Positions 2,987 to 12,097 of a stretch of 38,612 nucleotides of DNA are shown piece by piece. How positions within the stretch are numbered: position 1 is the stretch's first letter; each line of letters begins with the position of its first letter. The notes below the pieces were generated by a model, which saw only the letters and a list, made by a program, of their open reading frames with translations, was not told the origin of the DNA and did no database searches. Source of the DNA: Chloroflexota bacterium (GTDB taxonomy: Bacteria > Chloroflexota > Dehalococcoidia > Lucifugimonadales > JACQTT01); NCBI GenBank assembly GCA_016210665.1, contig JACQTT010000083.1, positions 1-38,612 of the forward strand. Reading direction: 5' to 3'. The translations under genes and the position numbers were made by a program.

Positions 2987-3931
2987 CTACTGTTTGGATA
3001 CCCTTCGGTCAACTTCTCTCAGGATTCTCCTGGTCTGGCTCACGTCTATGGCTATCTGCTCTCTCAGGGCTTCTATTGAATTGAAAGCTAATTCACCCCT
3101 AAGGCGTCTAGCAAACTCAAGGCGGATATCCTGGTCGTATAAATCGCCTTGAAAGTCCAGGATATAGGCTTCGACAGTTCGTTCCCCAGGGCCGAAGGTA
3201 GGCCTGACACCGATGCTTGTAGCCGACTCGCGTCTCGTGCCGTTGATATAGGCCCAGGTGGCATATATTCCGTCTCCAGGGATGGCCCTTTCCGATGGCA
3301 CCTCCAGATTAGCTGTGGGAAATCCGAGTTGCCTTCCTCGACCCTCTCCAGAGCGAACCCTGCCTGTAAGCGCAAAATTACGCCCCAAGAGCTTAGAGAC
3401 GGTGACAACGTCACCCTCAACCAGGGTGCCTTTTATGATTGTGCTACTTACTGACAGATTACCCAAAGCTAGATGGGGTACAACGTGAACCGTAAATCCC
3501 ATCTCATTTCCCAGGGTAGTAAGCACCTGAACGTCTCCCTCTCTCTGATGGCCCATGGCGAAGTCGGGGCCCATGACCAGACCCTTCATCCCCAGATATT
3601 TTTGAAGCAGAGACACGAACTCTCTGGCCTTCAAGAAGGACAGGGGCAAATCAAATCTGATGGGAACCACCAGGTCCACGCCGGTTTCTTTTAGAAGCTG
3701 TAGTCGCTCCTCCACACTGCAAATGTAAACGATCTTCGTATCAGGCCGGAGGACTGTAAGAGGGTGGTTGTAAAAGGTAACCACGCCAGCGAGAAGATTA
3801 TGCTTTCGAGCCTCGCTCTTGACCTGTTCCAAGAGGTGGCGATGCCCCAAATGCACACCGTCGAAGACGCCCACAGTGAGGACAGTATCCCGATGGGGAT
3901 TAGACTGGGAAAGATCTCCGTGAACGCTCAT
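2987..3931 (-). CDS. ribF: Bifunctional riboflavin kinase / FAD synthetase
   Basis: GVFDGVHLGH, VSSTII, GRQLGFPTAN, GVRPTF, VEAYILDF. Confidence 0.97.
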   Translation of the reverse strand: MSVHGDLSQSNPHRDTVLTVGVFDGVHLGHRHLLEQVKSEARKHNLLAGVVTFYNHPLTVLRPDTKIVYICSVEERLQLLKETGVDLVVPIRFDLPLSFLKAREFVSLLQKYLGMKGLVMGPDFAMGHQREGDVQVLTTLGNEMGFTVHVVPHLALGNLSVSSTIIKGTLVEGDVVTVSKLLGRNFALTGRVRSGEGRGRQLGFPTANLEVPSERAIPGDGIYATWAYINGTRRESATSIGVRPTFGPGERTVEAYILDFQGDLYDQDIRLEFARRLRGELAFNSIEALREQIAIDVSQTRRILREVDRRVSKQ

Positions 3932-3989
3932 CTCGGTGAAACTAAAGCGGACTTATTCTCTAATGAATACGTAAGCTATTGTAGTCAGG

Positions 3990-4018
3990 ATACTATCACT
4001 CCCTTTATATAGCGTCAA
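3990..4018 (-). promoter_or_regulatory. Putative sigma70 promoter for ribF-tyrS
   Basis: Minus strand TTGACG-N17-TAGTAT with extended TG, about 60 nt upstream of ribF. Confidence 0.55.
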
Positions 4019-4188
4019 GGGAAGTGGGCAAGACAGCAGACCTGTGTGACTGGTAGCTGCCTGCAACTCCTGACGGCCGTGGCAGGACTTCGCATCTTGA
4101 TGCTGGGGGTAATTTCAAGGTTTAGGTAGATAGGCTGCAGGCGATTCTATTACTAGATGTGGAACAATTAGGAGTAGGAGCTTTGGAC

Positions 4189-4216
4189 TTGACTTGCGTG
4201 GATACCCATATATTAT
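4189..4216 (+). promoter_or_regulatory. Putative sigma70 promoter for the class I aminotransferase
   Basis: TTGACT-N16-TATTAT followed by an AT-rich tract. Confidence 0.5.
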
Positions 4217-4262
4217 GTTATATAAATAATTAATTGGCGCTTTTAACGCGGGAGCATATTGA

Positions 4263-5537
4263 ATGGTGGATTTACCCAAAGTAAAAGATGTTGAAAAAAC
4301 AAAGACCTGGCAGGAGATAGACCTACGGATCCTTCTGACCAAGGGAGCTCGTTCTTTGGGAGCAGGTAGCCCAACAGACGCCGGCCTGTCCAGGATATCT
4401 ACTACCTCCGTAGCCAATCCCATTGTCCTGGCTGGAGGAGTTCCCGACCCGGCCACTTTGCCTGTTGATGACCTGCTTAAAGCGATTGGCCACGTTCTGA
4501 CTACCCATCCAGATGAGTCCCTGCGGTATGGAGGAGTTCACGGTTTTGACGGACTCCGCACCGCCCTGGCTGAGCGTCAGAGCAGGATAGAGGGGATTCC
4601 CCTGGTCCCCGAAAACTTCCTCATAGACAACGGCAGCGCTGGCGGCATAGATACTATATGTGACGCCTTTGTTGAATCTGGAGACGTTGTGATAGTCGAG
4701 TCCCCCACATTTTCCGGGTCTTTGCGGACAATCAAGGGCCATATGGCCGAGATTGCGCCAGTACCTCTGGATGACCAGGGTATAATGGTTGACAGAGTCG
4801 CCGAAGTCATAAGACGGACTGAAAAATCAGGCAAACGTGTAAAGCTCGTGTACACGATTAGCGACTTTCATAATCCTACTGGGGTGACTATGTCTCCAGA
4901 GCGGCGTTCAAACCTAGTAAGCCTGTGTGCTGAGCACCATGCTCTTATTGTCGAAGACGCTGCCTATTCTGACATCTACTTCGGTAGCCAACCGCCTGTC
5001 TCCCTATACACCCTGGCAGAAGGACAGGGGATCTTTAAGGTGGGTACATTTAGCAAACCCATCGCCACTGGGCTACGAATAGGTTGGGTTCAAGGGAGGC
5101 CAGACTACATTGAGGCGCTGGCTCAGGTACGCTTCGACATGGGCAACAGCCCATTGCTTCAGATGGCGCTGGCCAAATACGTTGCCTCTGGGATGCTGAA
5201 TACCCACTTAGAAAAGGTTCGTCCCCTCTATGCAGAAAAGTGCGAGACGCTGTGTAAGTCTTTGCGTGATCACTGTGCACAATACATCAGATTCAGAAAG
5301 CCCGAAGGCGGCTTTTTCCTCTGGGTTGAGTGTGTTGGACCTCAAGCCCAGGATGTTGCTCGCGAGGCTATAGAAGAGGGGATATTCTTTCCTTTAGGCG
5401 CAGCCTTTTTCTTCGGCCGCGAAGCGGACGATACTTCTCACATCCGACTCTCCTTCAGCACGGCGACATTAAAGGAGCTGTCTGAAGTAGGCCCAAGACT
5501 GAGAGCCGCTTTCGACCGGGCTATCGGTGAGCGATGA
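4263..5537 (+). CDS. Class I/II PLP-dependent aminotransferase (ARO8/LysN/MocR-AAT-like, no HTH)
   Basis: LAGGVPDP, ESPTF, DFHNPTG, EDAAY, GTFSK (PLP lysine), GLRIGW, PEGGFFLW, IRLSFS. Confidence 0.9.
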   Translation: MVDLPKVKDVEKTKTWQEIDLRILLTKGARSLGAGSPTDAGLSRISTTSVANPIVLAGGVPDPATLPVDDLLKAIGHVLTTHPDESLRYGGVHGFDGLRTALAERQSRIEGIPLVPENFLIDNGSAGGIDTICDAFVESGDVVIVESPTFSGSLRTIKGHMAEIAPVPLDDQGIMVDRVAEVIRRTEKSGKRVKLVYTISDFHNPTGVTMSPERRSNLVSLCAEHHALIVEDAAYSDIYFGSQPPVSLYTLAEGQGIFKVGTFSKPIATGLRIGWVQGRPDYIEALAQVRFDMGNSPLLQMALAKYVASGMLNTHLEKVRPLYAEKCETLCKSLRDHCAQYIRFRKPEGGFFLWVECVGPQAQDVAREAIEEGIFFPLGAAFFFGREADDTSHIRLSFSTATLKELSEVGPRLRAAFDRAIGER

Positions 5538-5545
5538 CACCTACC

Positions 5546-5696
5546 ATATGGCCACATGGGGTTAGCTCAGGTCAGCCTCTCCCGACTTGTCGGGAGAGGG
5601 ATGGCCATATTGCCCTGGCAGGTCCTCTCCGCCTGCCGAGGTTCGACGGGCAGGTCTTCCCCCTCTCCTTGCAGGAGAGGGGGCCAGGGGGTGAGG
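5546..5696. repeat. Cluster of REP-like GC-rich palindromes
   Basis: atatggcca/tggccatat (5546-5554, 5602-5610) encloses the perfect 11-bp IR cctctcccgac-tt-gtcgggagagg (5576-5599). A second 11-bp IR ccccctctcct-tgc-aggagaggggg (5659-5683) is followed by ccagggggtgagg. Confidence 0.75.
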
Positions 5697-5819
5697 TATA
5701 TGCTCCCAGAGGGGAAGTGCTCTCTGCAATGAGGCATCTATTTTTGTAAAGAACCAAGGAGACACAACACAAAGTTCAGTCGCCAAATCAATCTACACTT
5801 ATATTAGGAGGAGGAAACC

Positions 5820-6125
5820 ATGTACGGCAGCATATTTCGGATGAAGGTAAAGCCAGGCCAGGAGCAGAAGGTAATTGACCTGTTTAACGAATGGGATAAG
5901 GTGGAAAGGCCCAAGGTCAAAGGGGCGATTGCCGGATATGTTATGAAACCCGATAGTAAGTCTGGCGAGCTTATAGGCGTAGCCGTATTCCAGGATAAGG
6001 CCAGCTACCGGGCCAACGCCGAAAGGCCAGAGCAGGACCGTTGGTTTCGAAAGATGCGGGAGCACCTCCAGGCCGACCCCCAATGGGAAGACGGAGAATA
6101 CCTGAGAAGCCAACTCCCTCGTTAA
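5820..6125 (+). CDS. Small dimeric alpha-beta barrel (ABM-like) protein
   Basis: Strong SD AGGAGGAGG; MKVKPGQE start and VAVFQDKASY pattern typical of ABM-like proteins; 101 aa. Confidence 0.75.
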   Translation: MYGSIFRMKVKPGQEQKVIDLFNEWDKVERPKVKGAIAGYVMKPDSKSGELIGVAVFQDKASYRANAERPEQDRWFRKMREHLQADPQWEDGEYLRSQLPR

Positions 6126-6133
6126 GCCAGCGC

Positions 6134-6198
6134 GTGCGGCCCGGCCATTCTGGTGGCCCCTGATAGATGTCCATGGTCGGCTGGTGGGCATCAATGCC
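6134..6198 (+). pseudogene. Relic of a trypsin-like (S1C/HtrA) serine protease active-site segment
   Basis: gtg cgg ccc ggc cat tct ggt ggc ccc = VRPGHSGGP, then a 1-nt frameshift in a C run, continuing LIDVHGRLVGINA; matches the PG(N/H)SGGPL.D..G.LVGIN motif. Confidence 0.7.
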
Positions 6199-6208
6199 AG
6201 CAAGGCTG

Positions 6209-6217
6209 TGCTATGAT
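6209..6217 (+). promoter_or_regulatory. Putative extended -10 promoter upstream of the DUF262 gene
   Basis: TG-C-TATGAT about 95 nt before the ATG at 6314; no convincing -35. Confidence 0.4.
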
Positions 6218-6286
6218 TGTCGCGCAATGGGCGATATTGAGGCGGTTTGTGAAGCGTCATACTGCAAAAGTGCAGCCTAATCAATA

Positions 6287-8062
6287 GTTAGGCAGGTACA
6301 GGAACGATAGCGAATGGAGTACATCCCAATTCGAGTTAGCGACATAATCCGGCAAGTCAATCATGACATCTATCTCCCGGCTATACAGCGAGAGTTGGTA
6401 TGGAGCACGGATCGTATTGAACGGCTGTTTGATTCAATCATGGCTGATTTTCCCATTGGCTCGTTTCTCTTTTGGCTATTGGAGGAAAAGAACAAGGACG
6501 AGTGGCCAGTCTACGAGTTCATTCGAGATTTCGACGGAGAGTCCCCGCACAATCCGCCTGCGAACATGGCCGGAATCACGAAGGACATCAAGCTCGTCTT
6601 GGATGGCCAACAGCGCATTGCTTCGCTTCTCATCGGACTTCGGGGAAAATACCGTTACTTTCACTATCGTTGGAGAGAGACCCGTCTCTACCTGAACCTG
6701 TTAAAGCCGGCCGTGCCCAATGAGGATAATCCCGAAGAGCTGACCTACGGCTTCGCATTTCGAGAAAGTGCCGATCCGGACCCCAAAACGCCGCAGCTTT
6801 GGTACTTGGTGGGGCGGATTCTGAACTTCAATGACGCCGAGGATGCTAAGTCGGACATGAAGGCGCAACTGGCGAAGTTGCCAGAAGACCAGCAGGAGAA
6901 TGCCAACAAGTTGATCGGTCGTTTGCACAACCGCATTCATACGACTCTCGTCGGGAACTACTATCAGGAGAATTCGCAGGATTACGACAAGGTATTGCAG
7001 ATCTTTGTGCGGGCGAATGCGGCAGGGAAGCCCCTCGAATCCTCTGACCTTTTGCTCGCAACCGCAACTGCCAAGTGGGACAAGCTTGATGCACGCAGTG
7101 AAATCCACGCCTTCACCGATTCACTCAACGAGATCGGCAATAGATACGGTTTTGGTAAGGACTTCGTACTGAAAGCATGTCTGTTCCTTAGTGAGAACCT
7201 GCCCATCCAATACAAAGTCAAGAATTTCACGAAGAAAAACCTTCTCATAATCGAGGGGAATTGGGAGAACATCAAGAAGTCTCTGTCAGCAACAGTGCGG
7301 CTTATCTCTCGTTTTGGCTTTAATGAAAAGAACGTCGTCGCTCCCTTGGCACTGCTACCGATCGCTTTCTACATCATGAAACGCGGCAACTCGTCATTTG
7401 ATACGTCCTCTAAGACCGAAGATGCCGTTTCTCAGGTTGCTATCCGCAGGTGGTTCGTCTTTGCAACCCTCAAGAACGCATTCGGCGGTTCATCTGACAC
7501 TACGTTGACCGGGTTGCGGGAAGAGTTGAGTGATTGCAGCCCGATAACGCCGTTCCCCGCTGATCGCCTCTATAAATCACTCGAAATCGAGCCACGACTC
7601 GGAGACACTGAAATCGACCGCATCCTGGGATTTGGCTACCAAGGCCGGTACACAAACCTAGTCTTGTCATTGCTATACCCTGACCGTGATTGGAGGAATG
7701 CGGTTTTCCATGAGGACCATATCTTCCCGAAGTCTGAGTTCCAGTTGGGGGCATTGCAGAAGCGAGGTTACGACGAGGCAAAGATTCAAGCCTATATATC
7801 GAAGTACAATATGCTCGCCAACCTTCAGTTGCTCACTGACTCAGAGAACCTCTCGAAGAACGCCAGACCTTTTGACGAGTGGATTAAGACGCGAGACGCT
7901 CCGTACCTTAAAAGGCACTTAATCCCCGATCTCCCCAGCCTCGGGTTCGACTCCTTTGAGGAGTTCTCGAGGGCACGTACGGAATTAATCAAGACATCGT
8001 TGAAGAGGATGTAGGTGTGGCAAAGTATGGCATGTTCCCGTGCCTAACAATCGATTGCAGCG
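6287..8062 (+). mobile_element. Probable stranded integron gene cassette (core site, ORF, truncated attC)
   Basis: GTTAGGCA (GTTRRRY) at 6287-6294 starts 27 nt before the ATG. Its exact reverse complement TGCCTAAC (RYYYAAC) at 8041-8048 follows the stop and continues AATCGATTGCAGCG, like the left arm of an attC. No integrase in the window. Confidence 0.65.
6314..8014 (+). CDS. GmrSD-like DUF262 (ParB-like) + C-terminal HNH/DUF1524-like putative modification-dependent nuclease
   Basis: LPAIQRELVW, FPIGSFLFW, VLDGQQR, IFVRANAAGKPL; C-terminal EDHIFP...NMLANLQLL...N. Confidence 0.88.
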   Translation: MEYIPIRVSDIIRQVNHDIYLPAIQRELVWSTDRIERLFDSIMADFPIGSFLFWLLEEKNKDEWPVYEFIRDFDGESPHNPPANMAGITKDIKLVLDGQQRIASLLIGLRGKYRYFHYRWRETRLYLNLLKPAVPNEDNPEELTYGFAFRESADPDPKTPQLWYLVGRILNFNDAEDAKSDMKAQLAKLPEDQQENANKLIGRLHNRIHTTLVGNYYQENSQDYDKVLQIFVRANAAGKPLESSDLLLATATAKWDKLDARSEIHAFTDSLNEIGNRYGFGKDFVLKACLFLSENLPIQYKVKNFTKKNLLIIEGNWENIKKSLSATVRLISRFGFNEKNVVAPLALLPIAFYIMKRGNSSFDTSSKTEDAVSQVAIRRWFVFATLKNAFGGSSDTTLTGLREELSDCSPITPFPADRLYKSLEIEPRLGDTEIDRILGFGYQGRYTNLVLSLLYPDRDWRNAVFHEDHIFPKSEFQLGALQKRGYDEAKIQAYISKYNMLANLQLLTDSENLSKNARPFDEWIKTRDAPYLKRHLIPDLPSLGFDSFEEFSRARTELIKTSLKRM

Positions 8063-8091
8063 CAGGAAAATTACGGAATGGGCTTGATTCT

Positions 8092-9417
8092 TCAACTGCT
8101 CATCTCGCCCTCCAGGCGGTTGAAGACCAACCCCGTGGGCAGCTTGGGGTAGAAGAAGGTGGCTTTAGGGGGCAGGCGGTTACCCTGGCCCACCACCTCC
8201 TCGAAAAGCTTCAGCGGCAGCGGCCTGAGAAGGATGGCCATCTGCTGCTCCCCCTTCTGAACGGCCCTTACGGCTTCAACGGCGTCGTGGACAAAGGCTA
8301 ACTTTGTGCCAGCCTCATGCTCCCCCAGGACGGGGTTTAAGACCCGCTGGTGCAGGAGCCATGTATCGCACCTCTCCAGTGGCGGGGCCTCGGGGCCAGG
8401 AACGTGGGCATTTTTCAGCGTGAGCAGATAGCCCTTTCCCTTTCCTGAGACCAGCATGAAGCAGCCAAAAACCACGTCCCCTTGTGCCCTTCCCTGCAAC
8501 CCCTCCTCCAGCGTAGCGGCGATCCCCTCCGCCGACAGAGCTGTTAGCTGCAGCTCTTCCCACTCAAAGCGTTCGTTCATAAGGGCGCTGAGGGCCTTCT
8601 CTTCATGGCTGTTCAGACCACCTACCAGCCTATGATAGGGAAAAATAAGAAGGCCTGGGTCGTTCATGGAGATGAGGGTCATCATTACGAAGTTAGCCGT
8701 CGAGGCATCCGATTTTATCGCTCCAGAGGCACGCTGAAGATTACGATAGTTCAAGGCCGTTTCGTACCGGTGGTGCCCGTCGGCCAGATAGACGGGCCGA
8801 TCTGACAGGGCCTCATGGATGCCCCTCAATATGTCCTGGTTCTGGATCACCCATACCCGGTAGATGACTCCATCGCTGGACGCTCCAGCGGCTAGGGAGG
8901 GTTTTGTTCTTGCGGCGCTGAGAAGATGGGTTAGCGCCCCTCCCGAGTCGCTATACAGGGCCATGATGGGGCTGATATTGGCATGGCACGCCTTCATTAG
9001 CTCCAGCCGGTCCTTCTTTGGCGCCGAGGTAGTGTACTCGTGGGGAACGATAACCCCCTTCTCAAACTCCTCCAGCTTCACGCACGCGGTTAGTCCTGTC
9101 CTGACCCTTACCCGACCTCGGAAGTTGAACTCCTCCTCGATCAGGTACATGGCAGACGGGACATCTGGCACCAAGACTCCCTTGGCAAGCCAGCCCTTGA
9201 AGGTGTCAGCGGCACGGGTGTACCTGTTATGTTGGAGGGTGTCATTAGGAAGCTGCTCCGTCAACTCAAGTCGAACCGAGTTGAACGGACTCTTCTGGTA
9301 TAGCTCTCTCTGCTGAGCAGGAGATATAACGTCATAAGGTGGGCAGAGTAGCCGACTCAACTCTCCCACTACTGAAGGGTTATAGCGATAACCTGAAAAG
9401 GGTCTGATATCAACCAT
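8092..9417 (-). CDS. DUF1015 family protein (ParB/Srx-like fold)
   Basis: IRPFSGYRY, PPYDVIS, IVPHEYT, LADGHHRYETA, FPYHRL, LPPKATFFYPKLPTGL. Confidence 0.9.
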   Translation of the reverse strand: MVDIRPFSGYRYNPSVVGELSRLLCPPYDVISPAQQRELYQKSPFNSVRLELTEQLPNDTLQHNRYTRAADTFKGWLAKGVLVPDVPSAMYLIEEEFNFRGRVRVRTGLTACVKLEEFEKGVIVPHEYTTSAPKKDRLELMKACHANISPIMALYSDSGGALTHLLSAARTKPSLAAGASSDGVIYRVWVIQNQDILRGIHEALSDRPVYLADGHHRYETALNYRNLQRASGAIKSDASTANFVMMTLISMNDPGLLIFPYHRLVGGLNSHEEKALSALMNERFEWEELQLTALSAEGIAATLEEGLQGRAQGDVVFGCFMLVSGKGKGYLLTLKNAHVPGPEAPPLERCDTWLLHQRVLNPVLGEHEAGTKLAFVHDAVEAVRAVQKGEQQMAILLRPLPLKLFEEVVGQGNRLPPKATFFYPKLPTGLVFNRLEGEMSS

Positions 9418-9550
9418 ATTCTCTGAGGAGATTTACTAGAGTTTTCCCGAGCACTCCTGCCCTCTTTAACTGTGGTAGAGTTAGGACGAGGCGTAGCCCT
9501 AAAAGGTCAACTTACCCTACAATATCTTATTTGCAGGAGGGTCTCAAGGG

Positions 9551-9580
9551 TTACCAAACCGTTGGGGAAAGTGATACAAT
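9551..9580 (+). promoter_or_regulatory. Putative promoter for the PEPCK-like gene
   Basis: TTACCA-N18-TACAAT with extended TG (TGATACAAT). Confidence 0.45.
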
Positions 9581-9701
9581 GCACATGGTCAGTGGGGATT
9601 CCCACCTTTAGAGGCTTTAACGCCTCTTATCACATAGGTTGCCGAGTAAGGCTAGGTTTTATCTTTGAAAAGGCAAAACTATCTCAATATAGGAGAGCCA
9701 C

Positions 9702-11978
9702 ATGGTAACTTCTGTACCTAAGCGAAAGAACGATAAGTCCCGAAGTTCGGCGCTGGCCGGGCCTCCCGTTAATCCTGATTTTGCGAAGGCCCTGAACGAA
9801 TTAGTCACTGCTGCAAAGAAGGGACAGAGAACAAACAGCGAGTTCTTCAACCCAGAAGACAAGTGGCTGGTCGGCCACATGCGTATCTTCCAGGACCTTT
9901 CCCTTGGGGAGCGAGAGCGCCTACTTCACGAGTGGAGACAAATCTCCGAAGAAGCTAAAGAGGCCAATGCTGCAGGTAAGGCAGCCGTTCGGGCTGGGCC
10001 GGATGTGGTTCTTCGCCTGGACAGCAGTGGGATCGCCTCCTTTAGCCAGTTGGGGGTGGCGCGTCGGCCCGACCTCACGCAATACTTCATAGATGGCTTT
10101 GCCAGAAACCGCGACGCCATAGCTTTTAGCGAGGCTAATCAGGCCCTCTTCTCTGAAATTCTTCCCTATGTGACCAGGTTTATGAAACAGCACTTCGCTT
10201 CGGGAGACACTATTATTCAAACCGACCGGCAAATTGGAGACTCGCCGAAACGCTCATTCCATGCCCGTCAACTCTTATTTTGCTCTCATTATCTTCAGCT
10301 TCCCTATATGTGGCGCAGGCTAACCTTCGAGATTCCTGCGGCGGAACGCTCCAACGAGCCTGACATCCTGGAGGTCTCAATACCCCATTGGCTCGATGAC
10401 TTGGGTATCCCTGATAGTCTCAAGGGGCGCATCAGAGAAGCAGGTCTTATGCAGTTGGTCTTCAAAGCGCCTACCTTGGGTCTGTCGCTTCATCTGGGGT
10501 TTGACTATATGGGCGAACATAAGATGGGCCCCTTGACCATCGCCATGTTCAAGGTTAAGCAAGCTCAGGGCCTTGCAGTGCAGGCGGCGTTGAGCGTGGC
10601 ACGGGTCAGAACGCTGGATGGTACAAAGAAGAATACCGCCCTGGTTACCCTGGGGCCATCCCTCCATGGGAAGAGCACCCTTACAATAATGATCGAGGTA
10701 GAGAAAAGCGAACTCTCCAAACTCCTAGCCCTACCCGAAGATCCCGAGGAAGGGGTTTACCCTATGAACGACGATATAGTACTGCTGCAACGGCTGCCTA
10801 AGCCCGTTGAGGTAGTGCGAGACGGTAAGCATATACAGATTTTCTACTCGATCGATGGCACTGAGAACGACTTCTATGCGGTGCCCTTCGGACTCACTCG
10901 AGAGGATGATCCAATCACCTACGAAGTCGTAAGAGGTGCCGAAAATGCTGCCAACCCTCAGGAGACGCTGGAAAACACCCCATGCGATCCTACTTCAGGC
11001 AAGCCGGACTTTCTCAACAATCCCGTTCGTAACATGCGCATGGTCTTGCCTCGCTTGCGCCTTATCTCAAGAAAAGGATCTCAGCATGTGCTGCAAGGTA
11101 TCACCAAGACCGCGCTGGATAATTCGGTTCATGTTCCTATGGAAAACATAGACAGAGTATTCTGGCAAGGAGTAATGCGTCAAAATACCATTGTTCCGCC
11201 CCTCGTCCGTCTAACGCTGGAGCAATACGTTCGGGCCCTTATGTATGGGGAAGCCGTCCAGATGGGGGCTGCGGCTGGAGCCATTGGCAGACCATATGTG
11301 GAATACTTCTCAGACCCCTTCATTATCGGTTTGGAGGACGACAACGCTAGCCTGATGTACGCGATACTACAGCAGATAGCTCGCGGAGGTTTGGCGCAAG
11401 AGTATTACATGTTCAACACGGGGGGGGTCGGCGCAGATACAAATGAACAGGCGAGTGGCCCGCGATACAAGAAGATTCCGAGAGAGGTAACGCTCATGTT
11501 GCAGGAGGCGCTGCTTCGTGGAGCCATGAAATTCGACAATGACCCAGTATTGGGCATGGAAGTGGCTGTGGCCATAGTAGATGTGCACGGAAAAGAGGTG
11601 CTGGATATTCGCAAGGAATGGCTACCTAGAGAGATCTACGGTGAGCCGGAGTACGCTAAGCGCGTTCAAGAATTGAAGCGGAGACGATACTATGGCAAGC
11701 AGGCTGAGGACAAAGCAGGAATTCTTCGCTACACTAAGGTGACCGATGCGCTGTTTGACCTCAACGACATACCCACGCCTGACAATGAACGAGAGTTGGC
11801 GTGGCTTCTCTCATTCTTTTGGCACTTGGACCAGGCATATAACAGTCTGGAAGAGGTTGTGCTGCATAGTGGCGAGGGAAAGAGACCCTCTCCACAACAA
11901 CTCCGTGGGCTTCAGCAGAAATACAAAGGCGGACTTACAAAGGACTCGAACTACCAAAAGCTAGTCTCGGCGCATTGA
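9702..11978 (+). CDS. Divergent phosphoenolpyruvate carboxykinase (ATP)-fold protein
   Basis: Motifs in PEPCK order: DYMGEHKMG, P-loop GPSLHGKST, kinase-2 NDD, GTENDFYA, LEN, NMR, DPF, YMFNTG. SD AGGAG. Several catalytic residues are non-canonical. Confidence 0.75.
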   Translation: MVTSVPKRKNDKSRSSALAGPPVNPDFAKALNELVTAAKKGQRTNSEFFNPEDKWLVGHMRIFQDLSLGERERLLHEWRQISEEAKEANAAGKAAVRAGPDVVLRLDSSGIASFSQLGVARRPDLTQYFIDGFARNRDAIAFSEANQALFSEILPYVTRFMKQHFASGDTIIQTDRQIGDSPKRSFHARQLLFCSHYLQLPYMWRRLTFEIPAAERSNEPDILEVSIPHWLDDLGIPDSLKGRIREAGLMQLVFKAPTLGLSLHLGFDYMGEHKMGPLTIAMFKVKQAQGLAVQAALSVARVRTLDGTKKNTALVTLGPSLHGKSTLTIMIEVEKSELSKLLALPEDPEEGVYPMNDDIVLLQRLPKPVEVVRDGKHIQIFYSIDGTENDFYAVPFGLTREDDPITYEVVRGAENAANPQETLENTPCDPTSGKPDFLNNPVRNMRMVLPRLRLISRKGSQHVLQGITKTALDNSVHVPMENIDRVFWQGVMRQNTIVPPLVRLTLEQYVRALMYGEAVQMGAAAGAIGRPYVEYFSDPFIIGLEDDNASLMYAILQQIARGGLAQEYYMFNTGGVGADTNEQASGPRYKKIPREVTLMLQEALLRGAMKFDNDPVLGMEVAVAIVDVHGKEVLDIRKEWLPREIYGEPEYAKRVQELKRRRYYGKQAEDKAGILRYTKVTDALFDLNDIPTPDNERELAWLLSFFWHLDQAYNSLEEVVLHSGEGKRPSPQQLRGLQQKYKGGLTKDSNYQKLVSAH

Positions 11979-12097
11979 AGACCCTTGGAATTCACGTCCG
12001 GGCAGTAAGTTAGCTCCAACAAAGTCTCTTTGTGTTGTCATCTGGAGGCTCAGACAGACTAATACCTGCTTGCAACAATGGCGTCACGTTCAACCCC

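Follow-up and report, generated by a model that had tools for sequence, protein, structure and literature searches.

A BrxU/GmrSD-family restriction gene in a Chloroflexota genome as a probable stranded integron cassette with a truncated attC site

We analyzed a 38,612-nt contig (GenBank accession no. JACQTT010000083.1; this whole stretch is called the window) from the Chloroflexota bacterium assembly GCA_016210665.1, focusing on a single defense gene and the short motifs on either side of it. A preliminary description, made from the sequence without database searches, had proposed that a GmrSD-like defense cassette became fixed here among housekeeping genes, and the core sites around homologs, the cassette arrays in which some homologs lie, and the points at which DNA homology ends all support that proposal. 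The segment from 6288 to ~8066 is very probably a former integron gene cassette that carries a BrxU/GmrSD gene as cargo, has had its attC site truncated, and is now stranded. The identity of the gene, the boundaries of the cassette, and the truncation of attC are directly observable, and the assembled part of the genome contains no integron integrase gene (intI). The source genome (G000) is a 1.38-Mb metagenome-assembled genome (MAG) comprising 99 contigs; its completeness is 74%, and its family has no other representative. In the labels used below, G denotes a genome, L a fetched locus, and C a contig of the source MAG, the window contig being C69.

Between the two motifs lies one uninterrupted, full-length open reading frame (ORF) of 566 amino acids (aa) on the plus strand (6314 to 8014) (Table 1). 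Its protein matched GmrSD_N in Pfam (E = 4.8e-30), HEC-05 in PADLOC over the whole protein length (E = 3.9e-181), and the BrxU structures 7P9K and 7P9M over residues 16 to 559 (E = 1e-91), with both the DGQQR and the DHIxP motifs conserved. The match to GmrSD_C was weak (E = 0.029); that region is covered by the BrxU alignment, with DHIxP aligned. DUF262 with DGQQR and the His-Me nuclease motif of DUF1524 are thereby found in one chain, as in the family, and we assign the ORF by sequence to the BrxU/GmrSD-family type IV restriction enzymes as a full-length member. BrxU, itself a type IV enzyme of the GmrSD family, and the HEC-05 representative share 99.2% identity, and mutation of DGQQR or DHIxP abolishes defense in BrxU or HEC-06 (bioRxiv 10.1101/2024.01.29.577857; here and below, statements on preprints refer to the portions available to us). 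The window protein resembles BrxU and HEC-05 in its DUF262-linker-DUF1524 layout, its full-length alignment, and both motifs. In the available text, BrxU is known from within a BREX island carried by a plasmid and HEC-05 from inside Hma and type I restriction-modification loci, whereas this copy is a stand-alone cassette.

The product is presumably an active enzyme, in which the N-terminal DUF262 would serve as the NTPase (DGQQR) and the C-terminal DUF1524 as a His-Me/HNH-type nuclease (DHIxP). It is a predicted modification-dependent restriction endonuclease and may restrict phages with modified cytosines. A consensus scan of 5700 to 8500 found no sigma-70-like promoter or terminator. The locus has the makeup of a cassette, with one ORF co-oriented with the attC remnant and no detected promoter, and the gene may be expressed by read-through from the co-oriented upstream genes.

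The ORF had been described as bracketed by GTTAGGCA and its exact complement, each about 27 nt away, and this can be read directly from the sequence: GTTAGGCA lies at 6287 to 6294 and TGCCTAAC at 8041 to 8048, and each motif starts 27 nt from the ORF. Within them, GTTAGGC (6287 to 6293) is the exact complement of GCCTAAC (8042 to 8048), and when extended, the inverted repeat covers 16 nt, 14 of which are complementary (6279 to 6294 and 8041 to 8056). Six of the 817 ORFs of at least 200 aa in the same genome, the cargo ORF included, score as high as the extended repeat. The window contains 4 copies of GTTAGGCA where 1.17 are expected, a number reached in 2 of 100 shuffles. A search of the genome for sites starting with GCCTAACAA, which had been put forward as a check, found no enrichment (10 found versus 10.5 expected).

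Homologs in other organisms carry the same motifs. As homolog contexts, we fetched 17 loci from species genomes and 73 from metagenomes; counts are over distinct contexts, leaving out three loci at 31 to 45% identity and flanks that were missing or held N. More than 120 protein cluster representatives lie at 77 to 87% identity, and homologs with core sites span 67 to 92% identity and several phyla. Carriers include Syntrophaceae (87%), Pirellulales (85%), Nitrospirae (83%), a Deltaproteobacteria/Myxococcota MAG (79%), and further Ignavibacteriales, Cyanobacteria, Acidobacteriota, Alphaproteobacteria, and others, while the best homolog among 40 genomes of the same order has only 38% identity. 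Many homologs have GTTAGGC ~27 nt before the ATG and GCCTAAC ~27 nt after the stop codon. Of 52 distinct contexts, 22 had GTTAG[GA]C at 20 to 29 nt ahead of the start codon (chance, ~0.007 per flank); an R''-type heptamer was present within 70 nt after the homolog match in 15 of 53, and a complete attC directly 3' of the homolog, as judged by the model described below, in 9 of 53. Since the same motifs recur at the same distances in homologs of other organisms, the flanking repeat exceeds chance.

DNA homology ends at these motifs. A blastn search of window positions 3001 to 12000 against all loci gave 29 rows at 78 to 92% DNA identity, with starts at 6259 to 6320 and ends at 7141 to 8062, and never reached the flanking genes (three of the matches are listed in Table 1). 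The start of homology was at 6259 for L079 and at about 6279 to 6288 for other loci, and with the cassette-type copies it continued to 8048 to 8062. The core is invariant in 17 aligned loci, which were chosen for having it, and the sequence upstream of it diverges. The 5' boundary has the form G^TTRRRY, complementary to the cassette's own R'', and the crossover point probably lies between G 6287 and T 6288.

To describe the homologs' sites, we built an attC covariance model (R1) from 11 sites, nine downstream and two upstream of homologs (alignment A2). In the consensus fold (RNAalifold), compensatory changes occur at 10 of the 18 pairs; besides a 4-bp R box and an unpaired spacer, it comprises two stems with single bulged bases between them (two bulged positions) and a loop that varies. 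As modeled, these sites have the structure known for attC. When 77 loci (575,550 nt) were searched with R1, it found 37 sites at E ≤ 0.01, all on the gene strand, and 15 distinct sites lay outside the training set. Some of the homologs do lie in cassette arrays, as the preliminary description had suggested checking, with up to eight attC sites in L055/L074, four in L053, and three in L027.

In the window, only the beginning of such a site was recovered. The downstream site had been said to continue AATCGATTGCAGCG and then break off, its attC having been cut short. With truncation allowed and the stretch cut at 8066, R1 aligned 8042 to 8066 to model positions 1 to 25 of 72 (12 bits), so that the first 25 nt are kept of a site that is complete in homologs. 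Running an attC model over the locus, another suggested check, was thus negative for a full site and positive for a 5' half, in both cases with a model of our own making. The best match of a 5'-half profile in the whole 1.38-Mb genome was at 8042 to 8062 (10.6 bits), while a 3'-half profile had no match on the window contig among its 15 best. In alignment A3, the post-stop spacer, R'', and L'' are conserved and divergence begins after ~8066. A search of Rfam gave no attC family match in the window and only two chance-level matches (E of 4 to 5). The attC is also truncated or decayed in L082, L040, L036, L045/L050/L051, and L078, and because the truncation points differ, attC erosion is recurrent and independent. 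In L011, the attC has kept both arms and the GTT core is gone.

Table 1. Features of the locus and selected DNA matches, in window coordinates (^ marks the proposed crossover)
Feature	Position	Strand	Evidence or remark
Aminotransferase gene, upstream	4263-5537	same strand as cargo gene	
Gene for small ABM-domain protein, upstream neighbor	5820-6125	+	Pfam ABM, E = 6.3e-07
Left-flank element	6217-6295	+	repeated at C86:9828-9921
R'-type core G^TTAGGC, cassette 5' boundary	6287-6293	+	homolog conservation
Cargo gene, BrxU/GmrSD-family (DUF262 + DUF1524) type IV restriction enzyme (by sequence), intact	6314-8014	+	Pfam, PADLOC, PDB
Spacer, stop codon to attC	8015-8041	+	conserved among cassette-borne copies (alignment A3)
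attC remnant: R'' (GCCTAAC, 8042-8048), spacer, and L'' half; 3' half (L', R') missing	8042-8066	+	R1, profiles
DUF1015 gene, convergent downstream neighbor	8092-9417	-	Pfam DUF1015, E = 5.2e-87
PEPCK-like ORF, 758 aa	9702-11978		Pfam PEPCK_ATP, E = 1.1e-12 over residues 128-629
DNA match to L079	6259-7565		92.3% identity; ends at contig end
DNA match to L033	6320-8062		89.6% identity
DNA match to L011	6279-8048		87.6% identity

The phylogeny of the proteins agrees with a cassette-borne origin of the window copy. In a quick IQ-TREE analysis of 50 distinct proteins (L077 and L082, which have internal stops, and partial matches were left out), the window protein falls inside a 17-row clade (SH-aLRT of 96), to which 6 of the 10 attC-bearing rows belong. 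On the tree, the attC label changes 5 times versus 9.3 times in shuffles, and none of 500 shuffles was as low. The basal rows have no core sites.

The proposed history is as follows. The cassette circulates among distant bacterial phyla with its own attC and would have been inserted here by an integron integrase at a double-stranded site containing a GTT, in the manner of attG/attI recombination. It now sits between two convergent housekeeping-type genes with the 5' junction G^TTAGGC intact, and half of the attC was probably lost afterwards, by hairpin deletion or slippage. Because the integron integrase (IntI) requires a folded R/L hairpin and the attC is reduced to ~25 nt, the gene would no longer be excisable.

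Several observations weigh against a stranded cassette. An exact inverted repeat of at least 8 bp is present in the 80-nt flanks of 54 of the 817 ORFs of this genome, so the 8-bp repeat alone is weak and at chance level, a caution already voiced in the preliminary description, and downstream the flank folds no better than shuffled sequences (z of -0.8 to +1.1). The full R1 model did not recover a whole attC anywhere in the window (best score, 9.5 bits; E = 3), and the match of the 5'-half profile is not significant by itself (genome-wide E = 1.9). About 30 of the 52 to 53 contexts have no core site at all, so the family is not exclusively cassette-borne. Homology to L079 runs 28 nt past the G^TT boundary, and the left-flank element has exactly two copies in the assembly, each directly 5' of a different cassette; the L079 extension and the repeated left flank together imply that the acquired unit may exceed one cassette. 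Finally, the MAG, at 74% completeness, yielded no integron integrase (best TIGR02249 score, 40 bits versus a cutoff of 265), and neither did any of 41 genomes of the order at E ≤ 1e-40, so that the enzyme that would have inserted the cassette is not in evidence.

The first of these observations, together with the failure of the full attC model, would be expected of an ordinary chromosomal defense gene whose flanking repeat arose by chance. We consider this explanation highly improbable, given that motifs expected at ~0.007 per flank recur in place in 22 of 52 and 15 of 53 contexts, that full attC sites and arrays adjoin the closest homologs, and that DNA homology stops at the motifs.

The left flank deserves separate consideration. 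The two copies of the element (80 to 94 nt) share blocks that are identical at 27 of 28 and 34 of 36 positions and differ by a 15-nt indel. In the window, the element terminates in the mini-palindrome GCCTAAT-N5-GTTAGGC, which itself closes with the seven bases of the R'-type core. The copy on C86 terminates in GTTGGGC, and a 500-aa ORF starts 32 nt further downstream. No match to the element was found in the relatives' loci. An attC is defined by R''/R' and L''/L' paired in one 57- to 141-nt hairpin with an AAC/GTT core. The preliminary description had taken the upstream bases tattga-ggc and gcc-taa-tcaata for the arms of an eroded attC hairpin. The letters are there, but we rejected 6235 to 6293 as an attC: DNA folding of this stretch preferred separate small local hairpins over one attC hairpin, no RYYYAAC lies 40 to 145 nt upstream, and R1 reached 9.5 bits (E = 3) on the 19-nt mini-palindrome at 6275 to 6293, matching the R box alone. 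By eye, the two substitutions in the second copy weaken the proposed pairing and are not compensatory.

These features bear on a different history, in which the locus is what remains of a decayed array or integron platform. The left element would then be an attI-like double-stranded site or the scar of one or more attC sites that collapsed and had belonged to earlier cassettes, and the GmrSD cassette would be the leftover of a small CALIN, which was either acquired in one piece or decayed on site. This would account for an element that twice ends in GTTRGGC before different cassettes and for L079, which shares its last ~45 nt (82% identity) in an otherwise unrelated context. It would also fit the alignment of 6275 to 6293 to the R box with the entire interior of the model deleted. 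About nine other contexts have a similar AT-rich junction (like YCTAAT-N4-5-GTTAGGC) in place of an upstream attC, and the array in L034 includes a junction of this kind 3' of another attC. We nevertheless regard a decayed platform as unlikely. Neither intI nor a remnant of it was detected in the genome, the window contig included; the element fails to fold as an attC, an AAC core is missing from the proper position in its 5' block, and with only two copies covariation cannot be judged. The upstream ABM gene, tried as a candidate preceding cassette, showed no cassette boundaries by eye.

The segment at 6275 to 6293 may also resemble the simple site of attI, in which inverted L and R boxes that bind the integrase surround G^TT: it is an inverted pair of core-like heptamers 5 nt apart that ends at the crossover G^TT. 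It differs from such a site in that here no intI is adjacent, no direct repeats were identified, and the genome holds two copies. One speculative and rather doubtful idea is that the left element is a portable, integrase-less, attI-like double-stranded landing pad that captures cassettes during transient visits of an integrase. If true, this would explain single cassettes in an order without its own intI, later fixed by attC erosion. Whether an attI-like target, a collapsed attC scar, or something else, the left element is the one part of this locus that might be new.

A truncated attC could also be a false junction. In a fragmented MAG such as this one, and with a gene common in metagenomes, the assembler might have joined unrelated flanks through a mobile gene shared by community members. 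Such a chimera is highly improbable here, however, as both flanks have their best relative in the same genome (G040) among the 40 order genomes (left flank, 68% identity; right flank, 51%), a further contig in this bin carries the other copy of the left element, and independent loci have attC truncations at other positions. Moreover, other copies of the gene have at most 92% DNA identity and are too different for an assembler to collapse.

The stranded cassette closely resembles elements already described. Integron integrases have been shown to insert cassettes at GWT sites in genomes (attG), SALINs (single attC sites lacking an integrase) have been defined, and domestication through loss of the attC hairpin has been suggested (Loot et al., bioRxiv 10.1101/2022.09.11.507474). 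Like the SALINs in the available text of that study, the window cassette is a lone cassette among chromosomal genes, with no integrase nearby and its left junction at GTT. By the features of a SALIN, an adjacent coding sequence is present and intI is absent, whereas the attC as a whole site is below R1 detection; only the 25-nt 5' half is left, so an attC search would not call a SALIN here. The locus further differs from the reported cases in having on its left a repeated element that includes the core in inverted copy, not an arbitrary GWT site as at attG, and in that the whole sampled order is without intI.

Homologs of defense cassettes have been reported outside integrons, either with a conserved attC or "without recognizable attC sites" (Kieffer et al., bioRxiv 10.1101/2024.07.02.601719). 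The BRiCs of that study and the "biobanks" of SCIs (Darracq et al., bioRxiv 10.1101/2024.07.02.601686) are likewise anti-phage cassettes. In the available text both studies stress small cassette-borne systems, whereas this cassette is large (~1.8 kb). The terms GmrSD, DUF262, and BrxU do not occur in the main texts of these two preprints, whose supplements may list such systems, and we found no report of a GmrSD/BrxU-type integron cassette in the main texts of the literature, supplements being outside the scope of the search.

Since genome-inserted cassettes and attC loss are already in print, the locus is a good illustration of a known principle and adds none of its own. It represents the end state predicted in the available text of Loot et al., in which a cassette is unexcisable and half of its attC is gone, and still-mobile relatives in other phyla allow a direct comparison. 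A BrxU-type restriction gene of ~1.8 kb travels as a cassette between phyla at 78 to 92% DNA identity, and attC truncation recurs at differing positions in independent copies. As attC-based searches would miss such stranded cassettes, genome counts of cassette-derived genes are probably underestimates.

The integrase searches were extended to the carrier genomes. True IntI proteins were found in the L027 genome (460, 450, and 375 bits) and the L011 genome (428 bits), above the 265-bit cutoff and on contigs other than those of the homologs, and none was found in the L012 genome by the profile search. Built-in controls gave no signal in the 41-genome search, for which the IntI found in carrier genomes serves as the positive control. 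A tblastn search with two true IntI proteins found nothing on the window contig. Close to the homologs, no IntI was detected among 19 ORFs (NCBIfam), among 50 of the 67 listed ORFs (Pfam), or by tblastn. A tyrosine recombinase adjoining L013 was considered and rejected as IntI (65.7 bits). The short loci around the true intI genes of G041 contained no recognizable attI or attC.

The assembled source genome also contains no complete integron or CALIN (at least two clustered attC sites), as no intI was found and its one full attC by R1 (C86:11475-11536; 33.4 bits) lies on another contig. A regular-expression scan of the genome for perfectly complementary RYYYAAC...GTTRRRY pairs 45 to 135 nt apart gave 10 rows on both strands, that is, five distinct pairs, the best with 10 of 20 internal matches; the C86 site was missed. 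None of the pairs are clustered, which argues against a cassette array in the genome. Among the 40 relatives from the order, five (G005, G002, G024, G029, and G038; loci L136 to L140) have one to three matches to the attC model at 33 to 58 bits.

The C86 site belongs to a second cassette-like unit (C86:9913-11536, equal to L102:5914-7537), which starts with GTTGGGC and contains the 500-aa ORF that follows the second copy of the left element. The ORF has weak matches to M6/M12B metalloproteases and FG-GAP. The attC starts 20 nt after its stop codon, and with 8 of the 18 model pairs noncanonical it appears from the model to be full length but eroded. The unit is flanked on one side by an ABC transporter/ProRS block and on the other by an amidase gene in convergent orientation. 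Upstream of the left-element copy, a short frame at L102:5512-5757 (C86:9511-9756) ends in "...YNHERAHGG..." and by eye looks like a C-terminal remnant of an insertion sequence transposase. A second DUF262-family paralog is encoded at C87:12211-13854, with 31% identity to the window protein; no core site was found upstream of it, and the attC model had no match in its flanks.

The genes around the window cassette are of the housekeeping type (Table 1), with TyrRS and RibF genes further left of the aminotransferase gene. The stop codon of the convergent DUF1015 gene is 26 nt beyond the attC remnant. Orthologs of this gene were found in 24 relatives at 31 to 51% identity, and because most of them align to residues 1 to 439 of 441, its C terminus is not cut. 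In a search for the empty site, none of the other window neighbors was conserved at the DUF1015 loci of these 24 relatives. Beyond it, the PEPCK_ATP match of the 758-aa ORF is weak and stretched, and its length is unusual for that family.

Other cassettes in the fetched loci carry different cargo. One in L033 (2225 to 3280) encodes a streptomycin-adenylyltransferase-family protein (PF04439; E = 9.6e-70), and those at L011:8093-8532 and L027:3342-3566 encode TIGR02574 addiction-module components.

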